In this document: one piece after another, positions 1 through 20,777 of the stretch
How the letters are laid out: every line of letters starts with the position of its first letter
How positions within the stretch are numbered: position 1 is the stretch's first letter
From: Escherichia phage Eps7
Sequence record: NC_010583.1
Length of the DNA stretch: 64,000 nucleotides
Reading direction: 5' to 3' (one strand)
Position numbers and translations under genes: made by a program
The notes under the pieces: generated by a model
What the model was told of the DNA's origin: nothing
The model's database searches: none
Seen by the model: the letters and a program-made list of their open reading frames with translations, nothing else

Positions 1-33
1 CATAATTATGTCCTTTATTGTTGTAGAAAACTA

Positions 34-246
34 TTAAAGAGCTGTCTCTTTAATAGACTCCCACTGTTTGGGGTCTTTCAGAGGAAGTTCCTCTTCTTCA
101 AACAGGTCTGTTCCATTTTCACTAACATCCCAGTTTTCTTCCATGATTTCTTCTAGAAGCTCATGTTTAGAAAGACGAGTGTAGTCTCTAGCAGACTTGT
201 GAGTGCTAGCACGGTTAAAATCATTCTTTGCAACGAAGTTACGCAT
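34..246 (-). CDS. hypothetical protein (70 aa, acidic)
   Basis: ORF followed by a GC hairpin; RBS-like GGAGAAACT upstream of the ATG on the minus strand. Confidence 0.4.
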   Translation of the reverse strand: MRNFVAKNDFNRASTHKSARDYTRLSKHELLEEIMEENWDVSENGTDLFEEEELPLKDPKQWESIKETAL

Positions 247-261
247 AGTTTCTCCAAATAA

Positions 262-279
262 GAGGGGCTTTCGCCCCCT
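262..279 (-). terminator. GGGGC-TTTC-GCCCC hairpin (GAAA tetraloop on the minus-strand RNA) followed by a T-rich tract
   Basis: perfect 5-bp GC stem with tetraloop; the transcript continues UCUUAUUUGG. Confidence 0.5.
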
Positions 280-287
280 GATTTAAA

Positions 288-503
288 TTACTTGCCCAGC
301 AGTTTAAGGATATTTTCCTTAATAGTTTGAGCAGATTTTTCACTCTTATTGGTTTCAGCCAGTTTCAGAGCGAGTTCTTCCTGCTGTTTCTGAATATCAG
401 CAGCAGTTTTCTGGTCAGCTTCAATACGAGCTTGAAGTTCATCAGTAATAGTGGTAAAGGAAGCAACGATTTCAGTAACGGAACGTGGTTTCTTAGAGAA
501 CAT
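288..503 (-). CDS. hypothetical protein (71 aa, coiled-coil-like)
   Basis: ORF with AAGGA RBS upstream; terminator hairpin immediately downstream. Confidence 0.45.
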   Translation of the reverse strand: MFSKKPRSVTEIVASFTTITDELQARIEADQKTAADIQKQQEELALKLAETNKSEKSAQTIKENILKLLGK

Positions 504-540
504 AAAAATATCCTTAATTAGTCAGAGAAAGAGTTAGTAT

Positions 541-557
541 ATGGGGCTTTCGCCCCA
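541..557 (-). terminator. second copy of the GGGGC-TTTC-GCCCC hairpin
   Basis: ATGGGGCTTTCGCCCCAT lies directly 3' of the 565..1080 gene on the minus strand. Confidence 0.4.
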
Positions 558-564
558 TCAATCA

Positions 565-1080
565 TTACTTCGCTTTACGCTTACGAGTAGGTTTAGCGGA
601 TTTACGATCAGAAGCACCAGTAAACTTAATACCGATACCGTAGCACAGAGCGCGAACGTTGTCACGGCTATACTCTACACCGAAAATATTCGGTTTAACG
701 GAGCCAAACTGTCCACGGGATTCACGCATTACGTCAGCCATTGGCTTACGCTTCTGATTGACTGCTTTTTCGTAGTCTTTCAGAGCCATACCGTTGCGGG
801 CGAACATCTCAGCACCGCCGTTAAAGCTCAGAGTTACCGGTACAGACTTATGACCTTCACCCTTGATGAACACAACCTGCTTAGCAGTTGCGCGAGTAGA
901 GTTCTTGGCCTTCGGCTTCTGGCGAACCGGAGCCGCAGACTTCAGGGCAGTCTGAGCCTGAGCATCAGTAGGATGCTTACGCAGATGACGTTCCAGACGA
1001 GCCTTACGATTGGCTTCGGTCTGAGCGAAAGTTTTAACTGCCGGAGCTGCCTGAGTTTTTGCGTTTTTCTGCTTAGCCAT
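565..1080 (-). CDS. basic (Lys/Arg/Ala-rich) protein, probably highly expressed; function unknown, possibly nucleic-acid binding
   Basis: 171-aa ORF with E. coli-optimal codons (CTG, CGT, GGT) and higher GC than neighbours; strong T5-type promoter just upstream. Confidence 0.6.
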   Translation of the reverse strand: MAKQKNAKTQAAPAVKTFAQTEANRKARLERHLRKHPTDAQAQTALKSAAPVRQKPKAKNSTRATAKQVVFIKGEGHKSVPVTLSFNGGAEMFARNGMALKDYEKAVNQKRKPMADVMRESRGQFGSVKPNIFGVEYSRDNVRALCYGIGIKFTGASDRKSAKPTRKRKAK

Positions 1081-1118
1081 TATTTGTTTTCCTTTTTGTT
1101 GATCAATTTATGAGATAT

Positions 1119-1147
1119 ATTATACGAAATTTTGAAGCGTTTAGCAA
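1119..1147 (-). promoter_or_regulatory. sigma70-type promoter (TTGCTA-17-TATAAT) with the T5-like downstream box ATATCTCATAAATTGA
   Basis: read on the minus strand; -35 complement at 1142-1147, -10 complement at 1119-1124. Confidence 0.6.
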
Positions 1148-1163
1148 ATGAATTTTTTAAAAA

Positions 1164-1442
1164 TTATCTGCCGATCATCTTAGCTTGTTCCTCACTGGAA
1201 ACGTACTGATAACCACCCTTATTGTATGCAGGAGCAGTACACAGTTTCTTACGCTCAATTTCTTCTTGAGCCTTGCGTTCCCTTTCGGCTAACTCTTCAT
1301 CTAGGTAAATTAGACGTTGCTCCGGAGGTGGTGGAAGCCTAGTTTCTGGCTCACCAATATTTGCCTTTCTGATCTGACGCGGAGATTGTGCGCGTTTTCT
1401 CAAAGGTTTAAATCCTAATGAATTTGAGTTGTAAATTCGCAT
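1164..1442 (-). CDS. hypothetical protein (92 aa)
   Basis: ORF with GAGGAGGG RBS; promoter TTGCTT-17-TATAAT upstream. Confidence 0.5.
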   Translation of the reverse strand: MRIYNSNSLGFKPLRKRAQSPRQIRKANIGEPETRLPPPPEQRLIYLDEELAERERKAQEEIERKKLCTAPAYNKGGYQYVSSEEQAKMIGR

Positions 1443-1467
1443 AAAGCCCTCCTCACTTTCAATACGA

Positions 1468-1496
1468 ATATTATACTAAATTAGAGGGCTTTAAGC
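1468..1496 (-). promoter_or_regulatory. sigma70-type promoter TTGCTT-17-TATAAT
   Basis: minus strand reads ACTTGCTTAAAGCCCTCTAATTTAGTATAATATTCG. Confidence 0.55.
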
Positions 1497-1518
1497 AAGT
1501 GAATTTTTAATTTATTTA

Positions 1519-2007
1519 TTACATCTCAGCAAGTTCTTGCTCAGTAATTACAGTATTGCATAGAGCATCAACTTCTTCATTACCACGAATACCTGAGTGA
1601 CCTTTAACCTTAACAAAGGTTGGATTGGTATCATGGAAGTTAATATACTGTTGAGTTAGTTTAAATGCTTCTTGCCAGAGTTCTAGATTAAGAGGAGTTT
1701 CACCATCTCCCTTCTTCCAGCCTTTCTTCTGCCAAGACCACATCCAGCTTTCCATACCATTTTTGCAGTAAGCAGAATCAGTGTAGATAATTACTGGACG
1801 ATTATCTTTCTTAGTAGACCAACGAAGAACTTCTACAATTGCAGTAAGTTCCATTTCGTTATTAGTAGTTTTAGGGCTGAAGCCAGATTTAGAGCCAATA
1901 CGATCATCATTATCATTATAGACAACGAATCCCCACGCACCTAAACCAGGATTGCCTTTACATGCACCATCTGTATATATGTGGAAAACCGACATTATTT
2001 GCTCCAA
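1519..2007 (-). CDS. rnh: ribonuclease H (RNase HI family)
   Basis: N-terminal YTDGACKGNPG motif, TNNEMEL, and C-terminal KGHSG..GNE..D motif; 162 aa. Confidence 0.9.
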   Translation of the reverse strand: MEQIMSVFHIYTDGACKGNPGLGAWGFVVYNDNDDRIGSKSGFSPKTTNNEMELTAIVEVLRWSTKKDNRPVIIYTDSAYCKNGMESWMWSWQKKGWKKGDGETPLNLELWQEAFKLTQQYINFHDTNPTFVKVKGHSGIRGNEEVDALCNTVITEQELAEM

Positions 2008-2264
2008 TCAATTTCAAGCCAAAAACCTTCACGCTGTTCATACTTAGCTTCTACAACATAACCTAGTTTGCTAAGTTTTTGCATGACGCTATTTCTAGCG
2101 TTTTCTGAGTATTCAGTTAATCCCTGGATGTGACAGTTAAATTCTTTATCTTTAATAGCTTTGTCAATCTCTACGGCAATAAGTGATTCTAGGTCAATTA
2201 CTTCCTTTTTAATGCTAGCAATAGTATTTTGTTTTGCTTCTAAAGCAGATAAAAGAATAGACAT
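1995..2264 (-). CDS. hypothetical protein (89 aa)
   Basis: ORF overlapping the rnh start by 13 nt (translational coupling). Confidence 0.45.
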   Translation of the reverse strand: MSILLSALEAKQNTIASIKKEVIDLESLIAVEIDKAIKDKEFNCHIQGLTEYSENARNSVMQKLSKLGYVVEAKYEQREGFWLEIDWSK

Positions 2265-2266
2265 AT

Positions 2267-2845
2267 TTATTCTCCAATTACTAAAACATCATGTTGGGAA
2301 GATACACCACACATATAATCTGCACAATGCGTAAAAGCCAGATCAATGATTTCAAATATATCATCTACATCTAAATCTGTGGCTCGACAATCCGCAATAG
2401 CTAAACCTGTACGAATACTGGAAAGTACATCTTCTCCTCCACAGCCTACACCGGCATATTCAACTTCTAGAATAGAAGCATTAGATTGGAAAATAAAGAT
2501 TCTTCCTTTGTAGAGCATAATAAATTGTCCCAGATTAGGTTCAGCATATTTTTCATTTTTCTTTTCGCCAAAATCTTTCTGGTTAAACATATCACGTAAT
2601 TTAGGTACTATTTCCGTATATAAATATTTATCATCGGAAATATCTGCTAAACGTGGTGGTACAGTAAAGCTATGCTCTAGTAATTGTCCCATGTAGAAGG
2701 AACTAGTGTATCCGAAGTACAAATCATCAGAGATTTTGAATACTTTCGGATTTTTAACCAGCAGTTTCGTATAGCCATTAGAACCCATACGATCACCAGC
2801 TAAGTATACTTTATCTTTATATTTAAATGCTACTATGGCTGTCAT
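2267..2845 (-). CDS. HslV/proteasome beta-like Ntn-hydrolase peptidase
   Basis: MTAIVAF..VYLAGDRMGS N-terminus (Thr2 nucleophile, AGD) and GVGCGGED matching the HslV GSGG region; 192 aa. Confidence 0.7.
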   Translation of the reverse strand: MTAIVAFKYKDKVYLAGDRMGSNGYTKLLVKNPKVFKISDDLYFGYTSSFYMGQLLEHSFTVPPRLADISDDKYLYTEIVPKLRDMFNQKDFGEKKNEKYAEPNLGQFIMLYKGRIFIFQSNASILEVEYAGVGCGGEDVLSSIRTGLAIADCRATDLDVDDIFEIIDLAFTHCADYMCGVSSQHDVLVIGE

Positions 2846-2875
2846 TATTAAATCCTTCTGTCAAATTAGAAGTAT

Positions 2876-2904
2876 ATTATATTTGAATTTCACTCAGTAA
2901 GCAA
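2876..2904 (-). promoter_or_regulatory. sigma70-type promoter TTGCTT-17-TATAAT
   Basis: minus strand reads CATTTGCTTACTGAGTGAAATTCAAATATAAT, upstream of an AAGGAT RBS. Confidence 0.55.
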
Positions 2905-2920
2905 ATGAAATTTAAATATA

Positions 2921-2938
2921 ATAGCCCCGAAGGGCTAT
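2921..2938 (-). terminator. hairpin with UUCG tetraloop, followed by a T-rich tract
   Basis: ATAGCCCCGAAGGGCTAT; minus-strand RNA forms C(UUCG)G stem-loop then UUAUAUUU. Confidence 0.5.
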
Positions 2939-2943
2939 TTGAA

Positions 2944-3297
2944 TTAGATTATAATCAAGATTATTAGGGCGTATGTCAGATAATGCAGTAACTGATCAAA
3001 TCCTAAAGCTATCCAAAACTTAGCATCGCTTATAGCATATTTACAGCGTTGTGCTTTCCAATAATCTATAATAAAGTGTAGAATTAATTCCATAATAGCT
3101 AAAGCTATAGACATTCCTGGTGATGTGAATAGGATTAGAATTGCAAATGTTAATCCAGCATGTACTAGCGAATGGGTTAATAATGGAAGTTTCCACCCTA
3201 TTTTATGCGTCTTTCTTAGCATATATGGTGTTTGGAGTGGATAATCGGCCATAAAATGTTTTAGAAAGAATATGACAAATAATAGTATAATTAACAT
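2944..3297 (-). CDS. hypothetical multi-pass membrane protein (His-rich)
   Basis: 117-aa ORF with three or four hydrophobic segments. Confidence 0.5.
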   Translation of the reverse strand: MLIILLFVIFFLKHFMADYPLQTPYMLRKTHKIGWKLPLLTHSLVHAGLTFAILILFTSPGMSIALAIMELILHFIIDYWKAQRCKYAISDAKFWIALGFDQLLHYLTYALIILIII

Positions 3298-3300
3298 ATG

Positions 3301-4155
3301 TTACACCGTAAATGGATATGCAATAGCAGGATGGTGTTCATAGCCACGAACAGTAAAATCATCCTTACTTACCCACGTTAATACATCATCCAAAGTTCTA
3401 ATATTTGGATTGATTTCTAAAGTAGGAGGTGCAAAAGGTTCACGATCGAATTGCTTGTGCTCCATCAGAACATTATACTGATCTTCATAGATATGAAGAT
3501 TAATAATCTTTTGACGAGCAATACCTGGCTTAAGACCTGTAATCTGTGCCATAATAGCTAGAAGTGCATAGCATTGCACCATATTAAATACTTGGCCCAG
3601 CAAGAAATCATTAGACCTCTGGAAAGAGTTTAGGTATAGTGTATCACCTAAAATAGAGAATTGATGGGTATGCATACACGGACGTAGGCATCCTTTACGA
3701 AATTCCCCACGGGTTCCAAAAGTTAAAATTTCTCCACGATCGTCAATCCCTCTTTTCAAATTATGATAGACTTTGGCTAACTGATCAAATACCATACCAT
3801 CAGAATTAGTCCAATGACGTCCTTGAACACCATAGACTCGTCCCATATCATCCTCGCCTTTACGGAATGGATTACCTAGCCAGGCAATATTTTCATTTGC
3901 ATTAGCATTCCATGTATTAACACCAATAGCGCGGAATTGTGCTGCTGAGTCGTACCCACGGAGATATCCGATCATTTCCATTATTGCTTGTTTAGCAAAT
4001 GCTTTACGAGTAGTTACTAGCGGCAGTTCTCCTGCTCCTACGTTAAAGGTAAAGTCTGCATCAATAATGGTTAGGCAACGAACCCCTGTTCTAGGATTCG
4101 TTACCCATACACCCTCTTCAAGAATACGTTTTCCAGTTTCAATATATTGCTTCAT
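3301..4155 (-). CDS. thyA: thymidylate synthase
   Basis: active-site region [10 protein letters not shown] (Cys nucleophile) and overall ThyA-like layout; 284 aa. Confidence 0.95.
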
Positions 4156-4680
4156 TTAAATATCACCAATTCTTGTAAGAATGAAAGCGTTTTATCTGCA
4201 TTCTGTCCTGCCACATAGTCCATTCTAGTTGCCATTGAATTATAAGTAATATGATGATGCAGATGTACATCAGCAGATAATGGTGTGGCTGAAGTAATAG
4301 TAGAGATATACGCCATATCTAGATGATTTTTTGACATACATTTCAAGAAGCAGAGTTGCTCCCCCTAATACTACAGTTACCTCTTCCTTGAGAAAATCAG
4401 GCAGACGGTATCCAATGTTGCTTATGCGTGTAGCTGATCTTATAGAGTTCGGTAGTGGTCTATTTGCATAAATAAATAGGTCAGAATCTCCTAGTATTCT
4501 TTTTTGCAGAGTCTCAGGGAATGCTAACCAAGTTCCTGCTCCTACAATAATATTGTCAGGTGCCAGAGAATCCAATGTAGCATAGAAGATATCTAGTTCT
4601 TCTTTGAAAGAACCCCAGGGGAGCTTACCATTGAGGCCGAACTCCCCATTCGGCCCAGTTGCATAGATTGCTGCTATCAT
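4152..4680 (-). CDS. frd: dihydrofolate reductase, interrupted by a frameshift in a homopolymer
   Basis: N-terminal [22 protein letters not shown] and GGATLL motifs; frame is lost at T6 (4327-4332) and a DHFR-like C-terminus resumes in the overlapping 64-aa ORF; total ~166 aa. Confidence 0.8.
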
Positions 4681-5825
4681 TAGAACATATCCTCAAATTC
4701 GTTGCCAAGATCTTTCAGAGTATCAGCAGATGTTTCTGTTACTTGACCTACACGATACGCTGCGCCAATCTGAATCTCTTGCGGAGCAGGTTGTAAAGAT
4801 GTAGTATCCAACCAGTTCATAATCCACGGAATAGGGTTCTTAGTAATTACAGGTAAGTGGCTTGGCCATTCTACACCAATGTGCATAAATGCGTTACGTC
4901 CTACAAAGTAAAGGTATTCTTCAAGCAGTTCTGCGTTCAAACCAATCAGACTGCGGCCTTTAAAGATAAAGTGGCCCCATTCAATCTCAGTTTTCAGAGT
5001 TTTTAGGAGTTGTGTTGGTGCTTTAGCTAATGCTTCATCTACCAGATCTTTATCAAATTGCTGGAACATAATCTGGATGATAGCTTTAGACATTTGAGTA
5101 TGTAGAGCTTCATCTTTAGCGATTAATTGCAGGTTCTTAGCAATACCTTGCAGAATATCGTTCTCTGCTAGAGCAAAGGTACATGCAAAGGATGCGTAGA
5201 ACTGCATTGCTTCCAGACCGTAGATTGCAAAGTAAGCATCTAACAGCTTAGCCTGAGTTTCACGTTTAACTTCAGGGAACTCAGTTTCTGGATAAGTATT
5301 ATCACCACGATGATCACGTACTGCAAGGAAATACTGACCTAACAGATACAATTCATCAAACAGTTCAACAGAATCTGCGATACGTGCAAATGCTTCTTGG
5401 TTTTTAGTTACAGAATCAATAAATTCTGCTGGATCAGTCAGAACGTTACGAATAATATTACTATACGCACGGCTGTGCAGATCTTCGAAGTAGCTCCACT
5501 GCTTGAGCATACCCTCCAATTCAGGACGGCTTACAAGCGGCATAATAGCTGCTTCAGGAGCACGGCTAATGAAAGAATCTGTTTGGGTCTGCCATGCTAA
5601 GTTCAGGAGAGTAATTTCCTGAATATCACGCGGAAGGTTTGGCCATTGTTTCTTATCGGCTTCCAGACTGATTTCAGTTTCAGTCCAAAATTGAGAACGT
5701 TGCAGAAGTGCTAGACGCTCAAGTTCAGGATGTGCTACACGAACGTAATCTGCGATACCAAGAGAATCGCCCAGGAAAAGGTCAGCGTTAGTATGATCCC
5801 AATTCAGGTTTAGTAAAGTAGTCAT
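4680..5825 (-). CDS. nrdB: ribonucleotide reductase class Ia beta subunit
   Basis: collinear with E. coli NrdB (EDLHSRAYS, FYASFA, AKDEALH iron-ligand regions); 381 aa. Confidence 0.95.
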   Translation of the reverse strand: MTTLLNLNWDHTNADLFLGDSLGIADYVRVAHPELERLALLQRSQFWTETEISLEADKKQWPNLPRDIQEITLLNLAWQTQTDSFISRAPEAAIMPLVSRPELEGMLKQWSYFEDLHSRAYSNIIRNVLTDPAEFIDSVTKNQEAFARIADSVELFDELYLLGQYFLAVRDHRGDNTYPETEFPEVKRETQAKLLDAYFAIYGLEAMQFYASFACTFALAENDILQGIAKNLQLIAKDEALHTQMSKAIIQIMFQQFDKDLVDEALAKAPTQLLKTLKTEIEWGHFIFKGRSLIGLNAELLEEYLYFVGRNAFMHIGVEWPSHLPVITKNPIPWIMNWLDTTSLQPAPQEIQIGAAYRVGQVTETSADTLKDLGNEFEDMF

Positions 5826-5856
5826 TGATTTTCCTCTTTCTCACTATTTCAGGAAT

Positions 5857-5885
5857 ATTATAGCAAATCTGGTAGCGATTAGCAA
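5857..5885 (-). promoter_or_regulatory. sigma70-type promoter TTGCTA-17-TATAAT upstream of nrdB
   Basis: minus strand reads ACTTGCTAATCGCTACCAGATTTGCTATAAT. Confidence 0.55.
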
Positions 5886-5891
5886 GTAAAA

Positions 5892-6374
5892 TTATAAACT
5901 ATCAAGCTCCAATAGTTTAGCATCGCGCCATTCTATAGCATCCTCTAATTCTTTAAATGTTTTAGTATGTTTTACACCTTTCCTAGCTATTTGGACTTGA
6001 TAAGATCCACTTGCTTTTTGGTGTATATTTTTAATACCTAACTTATTGTCCTTATGTGCTCCAACGTTCTTTCCATTACTAAATCTGTTAGAGGCTAGTA
6101 AATTAATTGCTCTATTATCATGACGTATTCTATTATCATGATCTACTTCTTTTGGGATGTACCCATGCGTAATATAGAATGCTAGGATATGTGCGTAGTA
6201 TTTTGTACCTCTTACCTGCATTACTATGTATCCTGAGCATTTTTCCAAAGAGCCTGCCTCTTTGCCTGCAAACTTAGTATTAAATGATTTATCTTCTCTA
6301 GGTTTGTGGGTAAAGATTCCGGTTTCTGGATTATAGTCAAATAACTCAGCTATTTCTTTGTATTTTTCTTCCAT
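5892..6374 (-). CDS. HNH homing endonuclease with AP2-type DNA-binding domain
   Basis: HILAFYITHGYIP..VDHDNRIRHDNRAINL (HNH) plus GVKHTKTFKELEDAIEWRD (AP2-like); sits between nrdA and nrdB. Confidence 0.8.
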   Translation of the reverse strand: MEEKYKEIAELFDYNPETGIFTHKPREDKSFNTKFAGKEAGSLEKCSGYIVMQVRGTKYYAHILAFYITHGYIPKEVDHDNRIRHDNRAINLLASNRFSNGKNVGAHKDNKLGIKNIHQKASGSYQVQIARKGVKHTKTFKELEDAIEWRDAKLLELDSL

Positions 6375-6406
6375 AATCTAAAATTACAGCCATTATAGGC
6401 CTAATA

Positions 6407-6425
6407 AAGGGGCTTTCGCCCCTTA
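6407..6425 (-). terminator. third copy of the GGGGC-TTTC-GCCCC hairpin, T-rich on both sides (possibly bidirectional)
   Basis: AAGGGGCTTTCGCCCCTT directly 3' of nrdA. Confidence 0.55.
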
Positions 6426-6429
6426 TTTA

Positions 6430-8822
6430 TTATAATTGACAACCACCAGATGCGCATCCAGCAGCAGCTTCCTCTCCTGCACCTCCACCATTTTCAGTGT
6501 TGAAGTTTGCATAATAAAAGGTTTTCCAACCGTACTTAACAGCAGTCATAAAGTCACGAACTACTACTGGGCCGGGAATGATTTCATTCTCGAACTTGGT
6601 GTAGTCATAGTACATATTCGTACTGATAGACTGGCTGAAGAATTTCTGCATGGTTGCTACCCATTTGATCCACTCGATACGATCTACATCATAAGCCAGT
6701 TTATAGCTCATTAATGTATCCCAATCAGTTGCACCTGGAGCAATTGCAATTACTTTATTAACTGCACTACCCTTGATAGATACGATCTTACGGGGCGGTT
6801 CGATAGAGTTAGTAACACCTAGCAGTACAGAGGAACTTTCACCTGGCATCTGAGCAGTCAGAACAGAGTTGCGCATACCATATTTCAGAATATCTGCACG
6901 CAGAGATTCCCAATCCATTTCTAGACCTACAGTTACCAGTTCATCAACAGTTTTCTTGTACGTGTCGATTACCAGAGTTCCTTGCGAAGGCTTAGTACGA
7001 TTAAACCAGTCACATGCACCTTGTTCTTTAGCCAGACGTACAGAGGCTTTATGTAGGAAGTAGGACAGCTTTTCAGCTTCACGGTGAATCCAGTTACGTG
7101 CTTCAACACCTTCGTAAGCCAAACCTTCTGCTGCCATTGCACCTGCTGCGTTCATCAGACCAATACCAACGTTACGACGTTTCTTAGCCGTGTACTTCCA
7201 TAGTTGGGAATGGGTAATCCTGAATCTCGATGATTGTATCAACGAATTTCAGAAGGATGTAGCAAGTTTTCTCCCATTCAGCCAGAGATTCCATGCGGCC
7301 TAGTACAACACCACCTAAGTTACACAGAGATACTTCACCAATATCTTCTGGACGCATATCGTCTAACTGATCTTGGGTTTTATACAGTTCCGTAACGTGA
7401 TGGAATGGACGGGTGGCTGAGTAATTCAACACAAAAGGGTTGGTCATACGAATCGGGTCAAGGAAGTTACCATGACGGTTAGATTCACCAATGTGATGAG
7501 CATACATACGCCCTGTTTCCATACGGATACGTAACCAAGTATCTAGGATTTCTTTTGCAGAGATTCTAGGAGCTGCTGGAATTGTTTTTCCTTCGTGGTC
7601 GATCTTTGTAAGAGAAGCCACACGTTTCTCCGCTGCCACGTAGATTTCTTCAAACTTAGCCTCATCTTCACCATAAAACGCTTCATGAACTTCTGGTGCG
7701 TAGAAGTAGGACATTAGCGTAATATCTTCGTTTTTCAGGTAACGTTTTAACAGAAGGTTGTTAAAGCTCAGAGAATAATCCATCTTATCGATTTTATTCT
7801 CGTCTGTAGCACGTTGCTGCTTAACCTGCATCAACTGAATGATTTCAGGATCGAAGTATGGATAAGACACAGTAGCAGAACCGCCACGGGTTTGCTGAGT
7901 GTTAGCTTTTACTGATCGGTCAATGTGTCGATAATATGGCAGTTTTCCGGAATGCGGGAATGCCCCATTTCGCACCGGATCAGCAATTGATCGGCTTTCA
8001 AGATGATACCCGATTCCCGCTCTGGCTGCGACCATTTTGAAGACGATGTGCTCGGCTGTGTCGATTGAATCCAGCGTGTCAGTGGAATCCACGAGACAGC
8101 AACTAGCAAATCCACGGTCACTAGAGCGCAGGCCAACCAGTGGCGGCGTAGGAACGTTGATTTTGTGGAGCGACATTGCATTGTAGAGGTCGATTGCATC
8201 TAGGATTGTCCAGTTAGGTTGAGATAACATCGCCATTGCCATACCCATGTAGGCAAACTGCGGGGTTTCATAAATTTCACCAGTTGCAATATTACGACGA
8301 GAATACTTGTCGAAGAACTGTTTCAGTCCACCACTGGTGAATAAACGATCGCGATCATGATCAATAACTTGGTTCAGAGCGTCAAACTGATCATCGCTAA
8401 TCCATGCACTCATGTCTTCCCAGCGCCAACACGAACCATATGATCGTGGAAGAAACGCAGAGAAGGGGTTCAAAGGAATCATATAGGCGTTTACGCATCT
8501 GCGCAAGACGTAATTCCTTTGCTACAGTATCATATGCTGGGTTGTCTTTGATAAGACCTTCAGCGGCTTTAATTAACACATCTTGGAGGGTATCGGAATC
8601 TACAACACCTTTTGGTAGATTTTTCTGGGCAGACATAACGACGGCAGACCAACTTACGTCAGTTGCTTTACATGCCCATGCAGCCCAATCATTGAGTTTT
8701 TCAGGAGCAAAGTCCTGAACAGTACCGTCACGTTTAATTACTTTTTCAATACTATGGCTCATTGGGGTTTCCTTTTTGTAGTTATCAGGATTTAGGAAAT
8801 ATTCTACTTTGTTTTGGGTCAT
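6430..8822 (-). CDS. nrdA: ribonucleotide reductase class Ia alpha subunit, split over three frames by single-base indels
   Basis: ATP-cone N-terminus (8397..8822), catalytic core (7184..8506) and C-terminus GIGLMN..CASGGCQL (6430..7242) are collinear with E. coli NrdA; frame breaks at G4 (8465-8468), CCC (8419-8421) and about 7181-7190. Confidence 0.9.
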
Positions 8823-8885
8823 TATGCAAGTACAATTTTACAGATAAAAAGAGCCCGGATATTTTCATACCCAGGCTCGTCTGTC

Positions 8886-9128
8886 TTACCATTTAAGTTT
8901 ATCGGTTATATCAATTAGCTTCTGTTGTATTTCTCGGTTGAAGAGAATATCTACAGAAGTACTTAGTTCATTATAGTTGAAAGGCCGATTTGGATTAGAG
9001 GCTACAATTTTCCACGCTAGGGTAGTCTTAGGACTTTCTTCCCCTTCCTTACGTGTAATCATGTTAGCAGCACTCAGTGAAGTACGGTGGATCTTAGTTT
9101 TGCGGTGCAGATGTACGACGTTTCCCAT
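8886..9128 (-). CDS. hypothetical protein (80 aa)
   Basis: start overlaps the stop of the upstream PhoH-like ORF (TAATG coupling). Confidence 0.45.
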   Translation of the reverse strand: MGNVVHLHRKTKIHRTSLSAANMITRKEGEESPKTTLAWKIVASNPNRPFNYNELSTSVDILFNREIQQKLIDITDKLKW

Positions 9129-9129
9129 A

Positions 9130-9429
9130 TTACACCTTCCCCATATCCTTAAAGATATCGTAGAATGCTTTAGACTCCGGTGAGCGAACGTTGTCGATCA
9201 GTTCGATCATAGAGAAAGGAGAGTTTTCGTACTTCTCATAGACTTCCATAAGAAGTGCTAGACCTGAATCACCCTTGATGTCTTTCTGAGCTATATCCCC
9301 ACAGATAATTAAACGACAATCTTGTCCTACACGAGTCAGGAGACAGATCATTGCTTCAACGGAGATATTCTGAGCTTCATCGACAATTACATAGGAGTTG
9401 TTGAATGTTGCCACGCTTTCTTGAACCAT
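9130..9429 (-). CDS. PhoH-like ATPase, C-terminal half only (Walker B onward)
   Basis: VIVDEAQN, LTRVG, GDIAQKD, SGL and VRS motifs; no Walker A upstream; an out-of-frame ATG with AGGAG RBS lies at about 9463. Confidence 0.65.
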   Translation of the reverse strand: MVQESVATFNNSYVIVDEAQNISVEAMICLLTRVGQDCRLIICGDIAQKDIKGDSGLALLMEVYEKYENSPFSMIELIDNVRSPESKAFYDIFKDMGKV

Positions 9430-9536
9430 TGCGGTTCTCTCTTTTTTGACGTGCTTTTCCCATAAATAACACTCCTATAGTGTACTTCGCTAACAGAGGA
9501 TCAACAAAAAGATCTTGTTTATCAACTTACAAATAT

Positions 9537-9565
9537 ATTATACCAATATATGCGGGAGAAAGCAA
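9537..9565 (-). promoter_or_regulatory. sigma70-type promoter TTGCTT-17-TATAAT with downstream ATATTTGTAAGTTGATAAAC box
   Basis: minus-strand reading of the divergent intergenic region. Confidence 0.55.
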
Positions 9566-9756
9566 CTACAATTTTAAATAAGCCTATGATATTGCATTTA
9601 AATAAAAAATTTGCTTGCTTTTATTGGGAGATGTATGGTACTAGATAATCATTTTATATCGCGTACACGGGCGCGTGATTATACTATTTTTAATAGAGGT
9701 TGGCAAATAAAATTTTTTGACCCAGATCAATTTACAGAATGTTATAGTAAAATATT

Positions 9757-9786
9757 GTTGACATCCGCCTTCGAATGAGTTATAAT
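9757..9786 (+). promoter_or_regulatory. sigma70 promoter TTGACA-18-TATAAT for nrdD
   Basis: TTGACATCCGCCTTCGAATGAGTTATAAT, then GAGAAGGAGGG RBS. Confidence 0.6.
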
Positions 9787-9815
9787 AGTAGTCTTAGTTA
9801 GAGAAGGAGGGTATA

Positions 9816-11690
9816 ATGAATCGCAATGAAGAACTAAAATATAAAGGAATGCAGTCCTTAATTCGAAACTGCAAAGAAATTATCGAAGGTTCAGCAGATG
9901 AAGAGCTGCTGTTTAATAATGCCAATAAACCCTCAGAACGTTTCCCTACACAAAGGGATATGCTTGCAGGGGAATTGAGTAAATATCTGATTCTGGAAGA
10001 AATGCCAATACAGATTCGAAATGCTCACATGATTGGTGATATTCACTTCCATGATGCTGATTACGCTGCGTTAGGTATGACTAACTGTTGCCTGGTTGCT
10101 TTGGAAGATATGTTGAAGAATGGTATGAAGGTTGGTAATGCTGAAATCAGTACACCAAACTCTATTACTACTGCGGCTGCTATTACAGCTCAGATTATCA
10201 CTCAAGTTAGCTCCCATCAGTATGGTGGTACTTCTGTAGACCGATTAGATGAAGTATTGGCTCCTTATGTTCGTAAGTCTTACGATAAGAATCATGCGTT
10301 TGCAAAGCGTTGGACTAAGGATGAAGCCAAAGCATCTGTAATGGCTACGGAAATGACTGAGAAAGAAGTGTACGATGCCTGTCAAGGTCTAGAATATGAA
10401 ATCAATACGATGTTCAACTCTAATGGTCAGAGTCCATTTATTACCTTTGGGTTTGGTCTAGGAACTTCTTGGGAAGCACGTCTTGTACAGAAAGCAATCC
10501 TAGAAGTGCGTATGGATGGTTTGGGTATCAATAAACGTACTGCTATCTTCCCTAAACTGGTATTTGTTCTGCGAGATGGCGTAAACATGAAGCCTGGAGA
10601 TGTCAACTACGATATCAAGAAGTTGGCTATGAAGTGTACTGCCGAACGTATGTATCCTGACTATATCAGCTATGATAAGGTTGTAGAAGTTACGGGAGAC
10701 TACAAAGTCTCTATGGGCTGTCGTTCATTCCTGGCTGCTGCGGAAGATGGTGAAACTTCTGGTCGTAACAACTTAGGCGTTGTTTCCGTAAACCTTCCTC
10801 GAATCGCTATCGAAGCGGAAGGAAATATTGATCTATTCTTCGATCTGCTTGAGCTGCGTGTGGATACCGCGTTAAAAGCATTGGAGTGGAGAGTTGATCG
10901 CTTAAAATACATTCAAGCTAACGCTGCGCCCATCCTCTATATGTCAGGAGCCTTTGGATTACGTCTGGGGCCAGATGAATATGTATTTGATCATTTCTAC
11001 AAGCGTGCTTCTGTATCCCTAGGATATATTGGCTGCCACGAAATGTTGCAGCTCATGTTTGGTAAAGATGTTGATACAATGTCTGAGTCTTGTATCAAGT
11101 TCGTTCAACGTGTGTTACAATACATGCGTGATCGTGCTGATCAGAAGAAGGAAGAGACTCAATTAGGGTATAGTCTGTATGCTACACCATCTGAATCTCT
11201 ATGTGATCGCTTCTGTCGTCTAGATCGTGAGTATTTCCCAGAGCATGAAGATATTCTGGCTAAAGGATATTACACTAACTCTCATCACCTTGATGTGGAG
11301 CGTAAGGTTGCTCCAAATGTGAAGTTTGATTATGAGTCTAACTTTACTCCTATTGCTTCTGGTGGGTGCATTTCCTATGTGGAATTACCCGATATGAAAC
11401 GATTCCCAGATGCGCTGGAATGGGTTATTAACTATGCTGCAAGTAAGGTTCATTACTTCGGTATTAATACTCCAGTAGACTCCTGTGGGGAATGTGGGTT
11501 CTTGGGTGAGACTATAGCTTCTGAGGATGGTTTCAAATGCCCTATTTGTGGCAACCATGACCCTGAGACTCTTGAGGTAACTCGTCGAGTTTGTGGATAT
11601 CTTGGAAATCCAGGTGCTCGTCCGTTTAACCCAGGCAAACAGCATGAGGTAATGGGTCGAGTGAAACATCAGGACATTCGCGCTAAATAA
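9816..11690 (+). CDS. nrdD: anaerobic ribonucleoside-triphosphate reductase (class III, glycyl-radical enzyme)
   Basis: C-terminal Zn ribbon CGECGF..CPICG and glycyl-radical motif RVCGYLGNP; 624 aa. Confidence 0.95.
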   Translation: MNRNEELKYKGMQSLIRNCKEIIEGSADEELLFNNANKPSERFPTQRDMLAGELSKYLILEEMPIQIRNAHMIGDIHFHDADYAALGMTNCCLVALEDMLKNGMKVGNAEISTPNSITTAAAITAQIITQVSSHQYGGTSVDRLDEVLAPYVRKSYDKNHAFAKRWTKDEAKASVMATEMTEKEVYDACQGLEYEINTMFNSNGQSPFITFGFGLGTSWEARLVQKAILEVRMDGLGINKRTAIFPKLVFVLRDGVNMKPGDVNYDIKKLAMKCTAERMYPDYISYDKVVEVTGDYKVSMGCRSFLAAAEDGETSGRNNLGVVSVNLPRIAIEAEGNIDLFFDLLELRVDTALKALEWRVDRLKYIQANAAPILYMSGAFGLRLGPDEYVFDHFYKRASVSLGYIGCHEMLQLMFGKDVDTMSESCIKFVQRVLQYMRDRADQKKEETQLGYSLYATPSESLCDRFCRLDREYFPEHEDILAKGYYTNSHHLDVERKVAPNVKFDYESNFTPIASGGCISYVELPDMKRFPDALEWVINYAASKVHYFGINTPVDSCGECGFLGETIASEDGFKCPICGNHDPETLEVTRRVCGYLGNPGARPFNPGKQHEVMGRVKHQDIRAK

Positions 11691-11695
11691 TGAAT

Positions 11696-11729
11696 CAGCC
11701 AGATCGCTAGTCGATCTGGCTTTTATTTT
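11696..11729 (+). terminator. rho-independent terminator
   Basis: GCCAGATCG-CTAG-TCGATCTGGC followed by TTTTATTTT. Confidence 0.7.
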
Positions 11730-11731
11730 AT

Positions 11732-11760
11732 TTGCTTTCGAGCTAAAACTTATGTATAAT
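11732..11760 (+). promoter_or_regulatory. T5-type promoter TTGCTT-17-TATAAT with downstream TGATTTATAAATTTGAGAGGAG box
   Basis: sequence match to the promoter family recurring on this strand. Confidence 0.65.
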
Positions 11761-20441: not shown

Positions 20442-20750
20442 ATGAGCGATCAGGTAAATCAAAACTATGAAGGACACATTGACGACCAGTCCATCATGCT
20501 TTGGGAGAAGGACGGGGAACAAGTAAGACTAACCGTATCTGAATTTCGTGGGAATCTATACATGGGAATTCGTTACTGGCTCCAAGATATTACTGGAGAG
20601 TGGTTTCCAACGAAATCCGGCTTCTCTTTTCCTTATACCCTAGAAACTACATCACAGCTATTTTACGCTTTTACGCAAATCCTCAGTGAATCCGAGGTCT
20701 TGCATGAAGTACAGAAACGAGCTGAAGAACTCAAAGCCAAGAATGCCTAG
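20442..20750 (+). CDS. hypothetical protein (102 aa)
   Basis: ORF between terminator and next promoter. Confidence 0.5.
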   Translation: MSDQVNQNYEGHIDDQSIMLWEKDGEQVRLTVSEFRGNLYMGIRYWLQDITGEWFPTKSGFSFPYTLETTSQLFYAFTQILSESEVLHEVQKRAEELKAKNA

Positions 20751-20777
20751 TTCTTGGCTTTTTCTTTATAAATGTAC

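Follow-up and report, generated by a model that had tools for sequence, protein, structure and literature searches.

The 64,000 nucleotides of Escherichia phage Eps7 analysed here (NC_010583.1; "the window" in the following) carry, in their leftward gene block, four short hairpins, three of them with an identical stem and loop. The source is a T5-like phage: bases 1-7000 of the window are 98.6% identical over the full length to Salmonella phage oselot (Demerecviridae, Epseptimavirus, T5-like), and about 450 T5-like records match this segment in all. From coordinate 1 to about 9700 the genes lie on the minus strand and follow, in the direction of transcription, the order nrdA, an HNH endonuclease gene, nrdB, frd, td, a DUF3307 membrane protein, an HslV-like peptidase, a small open reading frame (ORF), RNase H and four small ORFs including homologs of T5.090, T5.089 and T5.088. 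This block is part of the T5 early region, which is read by the host RNA polymerase, and 5.8% of it (34-9429) is non-coding. For the comparison with relatives we used 27-31 loci and a few GenBank records out of about 560 T5-like genomes, the total number of such records being given as about 450-560.

The original prediction had listed three copies of GGGGC-GAAA-GCCCC and one C(UUCG)G hairpin, all of them intergenic, and this description holds, with positions correct to 1-2 bases. The 14-mer GGGGCTTTCGCCCC (plus strand), which reads GGGGCGAAAGCCCC on the minus-strand transcript, i.e. GGGGC-GAAA-GCCCC, is present exactly three times, at 264-277, 543-556 and 6409-6422. Including flanking pairs, the stems span 263-279 (hairpin 1), 541-558 (hairpin 2) and 6407-6424 (hairpin 3). 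Hairpin 4, the C(UUCG)G hairpin with 8 base pairs (bp), occupies 2920-2939 on the minus strand (AATAGCCC-TTCG-GGGCTATT). All four are located between minus-strand ORFs: hairpin 1 between 288..503 and 34..246, hairpin 2 between 565..1080 and 288..503, hairpin 3 between nrdA and the HNH gene, and hairpin 4 between 2944..3297 and 2267..2845. GGGGC-N4-GCCCC is found at these three sites only in oselot, which was covered except for its first ~8.9 kb.

It is extremely unlikely that the hairpins are chance sequences or relics with no present function. The 14-mer is common in viral contigs (at least 120 stretches) and its loop is free to change, but not a single copy is expected in the window (0.00 in 100 dinucleotide-preserving shuffles, also with one mismatch allowed), and all copies are intergenic; for four of four hairpins this has a chance of about 1e-5 at the given share of non-coding DNA. 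Furthermore, the stems do not vary between two genera in which the neighbouring gene has reached a synonymous distance (dS) of about 1.1, and a hairpin is retained at each position even after its sequence has been replaced. The scan for the bare 14-mer returned stretches from unrelated contigs, from which its origin is not traceable. One such contig, IMGVR_UViG_3300045988_011923 (178,768 bp; L139-L145), contains at least seven exact copies of GGGGCGAAAGCCCC, most of them followed by 4-6 T, which points to reuse of the same minimal hairpin as a terminator in another phage lineage; repeated use of a minimal stable hairpin is therefore not peculiar to Eps7.

The anatomy of the four elements resembles that of small terminators, apart from their tails. 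Each has a stem of 5-8 bp with 4-5 G-C pairs and a 4-nt loop on the transcribed strand, a predicted stability of -11 to -13 kcal/mol and a start 5-9 nt past a stop codon, in accordance with the stem and the location of Rho-independent terminators. Hairpin 1 (263..279, minus strand; cAGGGGGC-GAAA-GCCCCuCU, then UAUUUGGAGAAACUAUG) lies 8 nt past the stop of a 71-codon ORF. Downstream of it follows UCUUAUUUGGAGAAACUAUG, the tail entering the Shine-Dalgarno sequence of ORF 34..246 with no promoter in between, and the element is a probable leaky terminator within an operon. Hairpin 3 (6407..6424, minus strand; AAGGGGC-GAAA-GCCCCUU, then UAUUAGG) lies 5 nt past the nrdA stop and 32 nt upstream of the start of the HNH gene, and is a probable weak terminator or attenuator that restricts read-through into the endonuclease gene. 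Hairpin 4 (2920..2939, minus strand; AAUAGCCC-UUCG-GGGCUAUU, then AUAUUUAAAUUU) is followed by a promoter 15 nt on and most likely ends the nrdB-frd-td(-DUF3307) unit. Behind the GC core these three continue as UCUUAUUUGG (hairpin 1), UUUAUUAGG (hairpin 3) and AUAUUUAAAUUU (hairpin 4), all U-rich but interrupted. In a consensus terminator scan, the call for hairpin 1 falls on the transcribed strand and that for hairpin 3 only on the opposite one. Hairpin 2 (541..558, minus strand; AUGGGGC-GAAA-GCCCCAU, then AUACUAAC) lies 6 nt past the stop of ORF 565..1080 (DUF7022, T5.089 homolog), and its tail AUAUACUAAC clearly has no U tract, so that it cannot be a canonical terminator; it is probably a barrier to 3'-exonucleases, a pause site or a terminator disarmed through loss of its tail.

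The stem lengths also bear on RNase III processing, one of the functions that had been suggested for these hairpins. RNase III substrates comprise about 20 bp (two helical turns) or two coaxial helices of about 10 bp, often with an internal loop. Division of the polycistronic early RNA into units by RNase III, as in T7, would suit the intergenic positions in a long early transcript, and a weak A/U extension brings hairpin 1 to about 14 interrupted pairs. The perfect stems, however, reach 5-8 bp, the longest being 8 bp and thus far below two helical turns, and the extension of hairpin 1 consists mostly of A-U and G-U pairs and is not seen at the other sites. Rfam scans, at the gathering threshold for the whole window and at E<=1 for 1-10000, gave nothing relevant, the sole match (1428-1510) being to a plant miRNA and due to chance. 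On the grounds of insufficient stem length we reject processing by RNase III, which appears scarcely credible here.

The surroundings of the hairpins are rich in promoters. Sites of the form TTGCNN-N16-18-TANAAT occur 15 times in the window against 3.3 expected, and they agree with the promoter consensus published for a T5-like phage, in whose genome 19 Rho-independent terminators and 32 promoters (TTGCTw/TATAATA) were listed (PMC3326045). Several of these sites start 10-21 nt past a hairpin that is G+C-rich and has a T-rich tail: the hairpins at 2939-2920 and 8878-8851 (minus strand) are followed by sites starting at 2904 and 8829, those at 11697-11721 and 20733-20761 (plus strand) by sites starting at 11732 and 20778. 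The promoter directly past hairpin 4 (TTGCTT-N17-TATAAT, 2876..2904, minus strand) corresponds to a T5 site annotated as a promoter. Such tandems of terminator and promoter, with similar-looking hairpins, are also annotated at other places of the early region in the T5 reference record, and one T5 terminator described there as "efficient bidirectional" carries a GAAA loop. The hairpins of Eps7 appear to fit this known T5 pattern of short units, in which a gene is followed by a hairpin and a TTGCTw-N17-TATAAT promoter. Besides, annotators of related genomes have marked the same elements: the equivalent 14-mer of hairpin 1 is a "putative transcriptional terminator" in the GenBank record of HdH2, and both the equivalent of hairpin 2 (plus strand) and the hairpin downstream of nrdA are labelled "terminator" in that of BB1.

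From this anatomy, the positions, the comparative pattern described below and the annotations in relatives we infer termination, its efficiency and a stabilising effect on the message. We consider it likely, with a probability of about 0.7, that the hairpins act as RNA stem-loops which punctuate the leftward early units of this T5-like phage when these are transcribed by the host RNA polymerase. Of the functions originally proposed, termination is favoured by the stop codons, the tails of three hairpins, the promoters and the relatives' annotations, with the exception of hairpin 2 and its missing U tract; mRNA stabilisation is consistent with anatomy and comparison. Stabilisation could also be the whole effect. 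If the polymerase read through all four hairpins and endonucleases cut downstream of them, the stems would stop PNPase and RNase II, and the segments of the early RNA would differ in half-life. The missing tail of hairpin 2, the interrupted tails of the others, the stable stems and the need for read-through into the downstream genes, given that no promoter follows hairpins 1 and 2, all speak for such pure decay barriers. Nevertheless, we regard this as unlikely: hairpin 4 and the counterpart of hairpin 3 in relatives free of the homing-endonuclease gene (HEG) stand directly before strong promoters, in the layout of a terminator insulating a unit from the next promoter, the HEG-less relatives have a textbook U7-8 tract past nrdA, and both the consensus scan and the annotators of related genomes class hairpin 1 as a terminator.

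Several points weigh against punctuation by termination. U residues make up 4/8 (hairpin 1), 3/8 (hairpin 3), 4/8 (hairpin 4) and 2/8 (hairpin 2) of the first 8 nt past the full stem, while eight terminators annotated in the T5 reference record (positions 1-36,400) have 5-7/8, and this record carries no terminator annotation at these particular hairpins. The invariant core pairs yield no covariation evidence, and the covariation of the outer pairs could also stem from maintenance of the palindrome at the DNA level by template switching (PMC8794818). Moreover, the stem of hairpin 2 is invariant in all 20 relatives that carry it despite the absence of a U tract; termination does not explain this conservation, and it is the one point for which our account does not fully explain the data. 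Finally, a literature search on T5-like phages yielded no 3'-end mapping, RNA-seq, term-seq or in vitro termination data for early terminators.

The comparison with relatives shows that position is kept while sequence turns over. Past nrdA, 24 of 31 related loci have AAGGAGAUC-UUCG-GGUCUCCUU plus UUUUCUUUG, followed by the nrdB promoter. The hairpin AAGAGGGUUA-AUUA-UAACCCUCUU, which has a U tract, occurs at two loci, AAGCCUAGCAAA...UUUGCUAGGCUU is also found, and more distant relatives show other hairpins at the same place. In HEG-less relatives the hairpin downstream of nrdA stands about 17 nt before the promoter. Hairpin 4 recurs unchanged in 9 close relatives, and its T5 equivalent, CCCUUUCGGGGG, differs by one base; in relatives with a 72% identical Td, GUGGCC-UUCG-GGCCAC is found past td in its place, so that the UUCG loop and its C-G closing pair are conserved among homologs. 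Not all relatives have the DUF3307 membrane-protein ORF (2944..3297, minus strand) between td and hairpin 4, and in consequence this hairpin lies either 8 or 365 nt past the td stop. Over 25 distinct sequences of the GGGGC family there is no change in the five core pairs, and the two outer pairs covary (UA/AU/GC). Taken together, these patterns would place the function at the level of structure and position. Other parts of this gene region vary in content as well: T5 and BB1 lack the HslV-like peptidase (within 1995-2845), and T5 also lacks the small ORF beside it.

The loops behave differently from the stems. GAAA is the loop of all three copies in the window, and its description as a super-stable GNRA element does not extend to a conserved feature among homologs. 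The upstream copies (equivalents of hairpin 2) read GAAA in nine, GAGA in two, AGAA in three, UUCU in five and UUUA in one of the relatives, the terminal copies (hairpin 1 or a single hybrid hairpin) GAAA in 25, GUAA in one and UUUC in two, and hairpin 3 of mar003J3 (L002 7420) has CUCU. Such a swap costs at most 1.3 kcal/mol of predicted stability. It would be the stem that matters and not the "super-stable" loop. Among otherwise near-identical alleles with perfect stems we found the reverse-complement pairs GAAA/UUUC, AGAA/UUCU and GAGA/CUCU, the pattern left when template switching at inverted repeats turns a loop around (PMC8794818). Apparent flips number at least four among 28 genomes (mar003J3; L013, L024, L028 and others), which suggests that loop inversion by template switching is frequent in T5-like phages.

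Hairpins 1 and 2 are direct repeats with a period of 279 bp (cores at 264 and 543) that flank the 71-codon ORF (288..503, minus strand; phrog_2380, function unknown), the cargo of a cassette bounded by the two copies. T5 is devoid of this ORF and has a single hairpin there, whose left flank corresponds to hairpin 2 and whose right flank to hairpin 1. The two-hairpin cassette is found in 18 of 27 related loci and the single hybrid hairpin in eight; the remaining locus (L020) has the cassette plus a second extra ORF (2298-2558) before the downstream hairpin. Since both this ORF and the DUF3307 ORF lie between a gene and its terminator, this could be an insertion-tolerant spot. Cassette-less genomes are scattered in a neighbour-joining tree of the 516-bp flanking gene, a weak basis for event counts, and this scatter would fit repeated loss or gain, or allele exchange. 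Against Tequintavirus genomes, the 71-codon gene has a dS of 0.22-0.45, whereas its left neighbour is threefold higher (1.05-1.25). With 0.36-0.51 for nrdA, which the 71-codon gene equals, and 0.85-0.88 for td, this spread is genome-wide mosaic heterogeneity, and the low value of the 71-codon gene is thus no sign for or against a recent lateral transfer. Many GenBank records name the 71-codon ORF "tail length tape-measure protein" or "baseplate wedge subunit"; its product is a 71-residue early-region protein with no Pfam match, and these labels are probably a propagated mis-annotation.

The third copy is linked to a different mobile gene. The segment made up of hairpin 3 and the HNH gene (5894..6425, minus strand, 532 bp) takes the place of 35 bp in endonuclease-less relatives, where the resident sequence AACAAGGAGATCTTCGGGTCTCCTTTTTTCTTTGA comprises the UUCG terminator; the nrdB promoter (TTGCTA-N17-TATAAT, 5857..5885, minus strand) just downstream of the insertion is intact and unaltered. 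The gene itself (5892..6374, minus strand) encodes an HNH_3 homing-endonuclease domain (E 4.7e-9) and matches phrog_99. It is carried by 46 of about 450-560 T5-like records and adjoins nrdA in every full-length match among those listed. With its domain, its presence or absence at a single site and its nearly identical copies in genomes that have diverged, the segment has the properties of a free-standing homing-endonuclease cassette. Among the compared loci downstream of nrdA, hairpin 3 was seen only together with the HNH gene, and a 79%-identical variant of this gene comes with a different hairpin. Homing normally co-converts flanking DNA, and this alone suffices for the linkage. The flanks of hairpins 3 and 2 share TAATARATAA, which is mostly the end of nrdA itself and is present in HEG-less alleles too. 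A promoter between hairpin 3 and the HNH gene was considered as well, as a TATAAT hexamer lies 8 nt past the stem, but there is no usable -35 element, and the hexamer reads TATCAT or TATAAC in two relatives (L036, L037); this candidate was rejected.

These associations with optional genes raise the question whether the 14-bp palindrome primarily acts on DNA, as a joint for recombination and insertion or as an endonuclease target through which genes enter and leave, with secondary effects on RNA. Two copies form the exact boundaries of the optional 279-bp cassette, genomes lacking it have one hybrid copy and are scattered in the tree, the third copy is confined to loci with the HNH gene, and the repeated loop flips point to extrusion of DNA hairpins or to template switching (PMC8794818). 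We nevertheless hold a primary role of this kind to be very unlikely: a 14-bp direct repeat is enough for occasional deletion in the absence of any dedicated function, other optional genes precede unrelated hairpins (DUF3307 before hairpin 4, the extra ORF in L020), the related endonuclease gene variant carries a different hairpin, and co-conversion of flanks explains the linkage of hairpin 3. The site-specific nick of T5 (5'-NPu pGCGCN-3', quoted in the T5 record) was likewise discarded as a candidate, as GGGGCGAAAGCCCC contains no GCGC on either strand. A role as recombination joint is possible as a side effect, which is not needed to account for the hairpins. A bolder version, distinctly unlikely in our view, would make GGGGC-N4-GCCCC a portable junction for gain and loss of small genes in T5-like phages rather than a mere terminator, with two copies through which the 71-codon gene is repeatedly and precisely excised and inserted, a third travelling with the homing-endonuclease gene and the loop flips reflecting extrusion of DNA hairpins during replication. 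If it were true, terminator palindromes would be hot spots of modular gene exchange in these phages.

For the claim that the identical stem reflects a shared function rather than chance, this history leaves a divided outcome. Chance does not account for the copies, but their identity appears to be mostly historical, as a direct-repeat pair bounds an optional gene and the third copy is tied to a mobile endonuclease gene. The feature as such is of an ordinary kind, already known and annotated in relatives.

Punctuation of the early units by these hairpins could work as follows. Hairpins 1, 3 and 4, in which a short G+C-rich stem capped by a tetraloop is followed by a U-rich but interrupted tail, are most likely partly efficient Rho-independent terminators, and their stems would also protect the upstream message from 3'-exonucleases, whether the 3' ends come from termination or from trimming. 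Hairpin 4 would close the nrdB-frd-td unit just before the next promoter and insulate the unit from it. A promoter at the position of T5 promoter P-H207 (TTGCTA-N17-TATAAT, 1119..1147, minus strand) is predicted to drive ORF 565..1080 and, through hairpins 2 and 1, the 71-codon ORF and ORF 34..246. Since the genes past hairpin 1 in this P-H207-type operon lack a promoter of their own, this hairpin must be leaky, and it would step down the expression of these distal genes. Hairpin 3 would throttle read-through from nrdA into the promoter-less HNH gene, after which nrdB is driven anew by its own promoter; as its tail is weaker than that of the terminator it replaced, a little transcription would be admitted into the HNH gene. 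Hairpin 2 is probably the upstream copy that was parted from its U tract when the 71-codon gene came between the copies, and would now be at most a pause site or a barrier to exonucleolytic decay.

Further elements of this type are found in the block. A terminator-like hairpin at 31..56 on the minus strand (CUAUUAAAGAGACAGCUCUUUAAUAG, then UUUUCUAC) overlaps the end of ORF 34..246, and another lies upstream of nrdA at 8851..8878, also on the minus strand (GAGCCUGGGUAUGAAAAUAUCCGGGCUC, then UUUUUAUC), with the promoter found by the scan at 8829-8801; the BB1 equivalents of both hairpins are annotated as terminators. A strong hairpin of another type is predicted on the minus strand at 1443-1498 (-24.5 kcal/mol, z -4.8), where AAAGCCCUC pairs with GAGGGCUUU. 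Its first arm falls within the spacer of a promoter at 1498-1470, and the second covers the ribosome-binding site and the AUG of ORF 1164..1442 (T5.090 homolog). Since the upstream arm is present in read-through RNA only, translation of this ORF may be blocked there and free on transcripts from its own promoter, by analogy with several T4 genes. T5, BB1 and most of the IMG/VR relatives checked have an identical sequence, and L011 differs by a few bases with a similar fold. The switch from minus- to plus-strand early genes takes place in a divergent promoter region (9537-9786), whose plus strand carries a perfect TTGACA-N17-TATAAT (9758-9786) and whose minus strand carries TTGCCA/TATAAT and TTGCTT/TATAAT. 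Compared with oselot, unpaired single-base indels break frd into two ORFs (window 4327) and nrdA into three (7195, 8421, 8466); either these are errors of sequencing or assembly (one indel is located in a T run), or the two genes of nucleotide metabolism are real pseudogenes.

Beyond annotation the significance of the hairpins is small. They mark the ends of early units and sub-units, help to place promoters, optional genes and the homing-endonuclease gene, and leave the known working of such hairpins unchanged. More useful are the side results of the comparison, namely an optional gene bounded by two terminator copies, a terminator swapped together with a homing-endonuclease gene and recurrent loop inversions. 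They are of modest use for the study of mosaicism in phage genomes and for the engineering of T5-like phages, as they point to natural insertion-tolerant sites just upstream of terminators.

Among known systems, the closest are the Rho-independent terminators of E. coli and phages, including T5 (NC_005859), HdH2 and BB1, which share with our hairpins the short G+C-rich stem, the 4-nt loop and the position just past a stop codon, the U-rich tail in the case of hairpins 1, 3 and 4, and often a promoter directly downstream. The terminators annotated in HdH2 and BB1 are the very same hairpins (hairpin 1 and hairpin 2, respectively), whereas the eight annotated in T5 differ by their U tracts, which are interrupted in Eps7 (3-4 versus 5-7 U in the first 8 nt) and missing at hairpin 2. 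Tuerk et al. in 1988 reportedly described hairpins with stable tetraloops, C(UUCG)G and GNRA, in intergenic regions of phage T4. The C-G-closed UUCG loop and the GAAA loops on short GC stems between early genes are reminiscent of these T4 hairpins (T4 terminators are reviewed in PMC2988022), as is the retention of UUCG on the differing stem GUGGCC-UUCG-GGCCAC. In contrast, GAAA flips or mutates in our relatives to UUUC, UUCU, AGAA, UUUA or CUCU. Hairpin 2, a stable stem-loop with no U tract between two cistrons of one operon that could block 3'-exonucleases, resembles the stabilisers of the repetitive extragenic palindromic (REP) type. REP elements are imperfect palindromes of about 35 nt, often clustered and bound by host proteins, in contrast to the perfect 5-7 bp stem with a tetraloop found here. 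With the RNase III sites of T7 the hairpins have in common the intergenic position in early polycistronic RNA; their stems are three to four times too short and have no internal-loop architecture. The reverse-complement loop pairs on perfect stems are like the products of template-switch spacer inversion (PMC8794818, PMC8604942), a process suggested here by allele patterns in 28 genomes with no rooted phylogeny. For the arrangement around hairpin 3, the best parallel is mobE of T4, an HNH gene between nrdA and nrdB that depends on promoters upstream of nrdA, possesses a weak terminator at which ~30% of transcripts end, and precedes an nrdB promoter (PMC2988022). T4 belongs to another phage family, the likeness seen between the HNH proteins is that of the domain, and the hairpin of Eps7 lies upstream of the endonuclease ORF and not within its 5' end. 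In both phages, however, transcription from nrdA can run past a weak hairpin into a promoter-less HNH gene between nrdA and nrdB, and a promoter downstream of this gene restores the transcription of nrdB.

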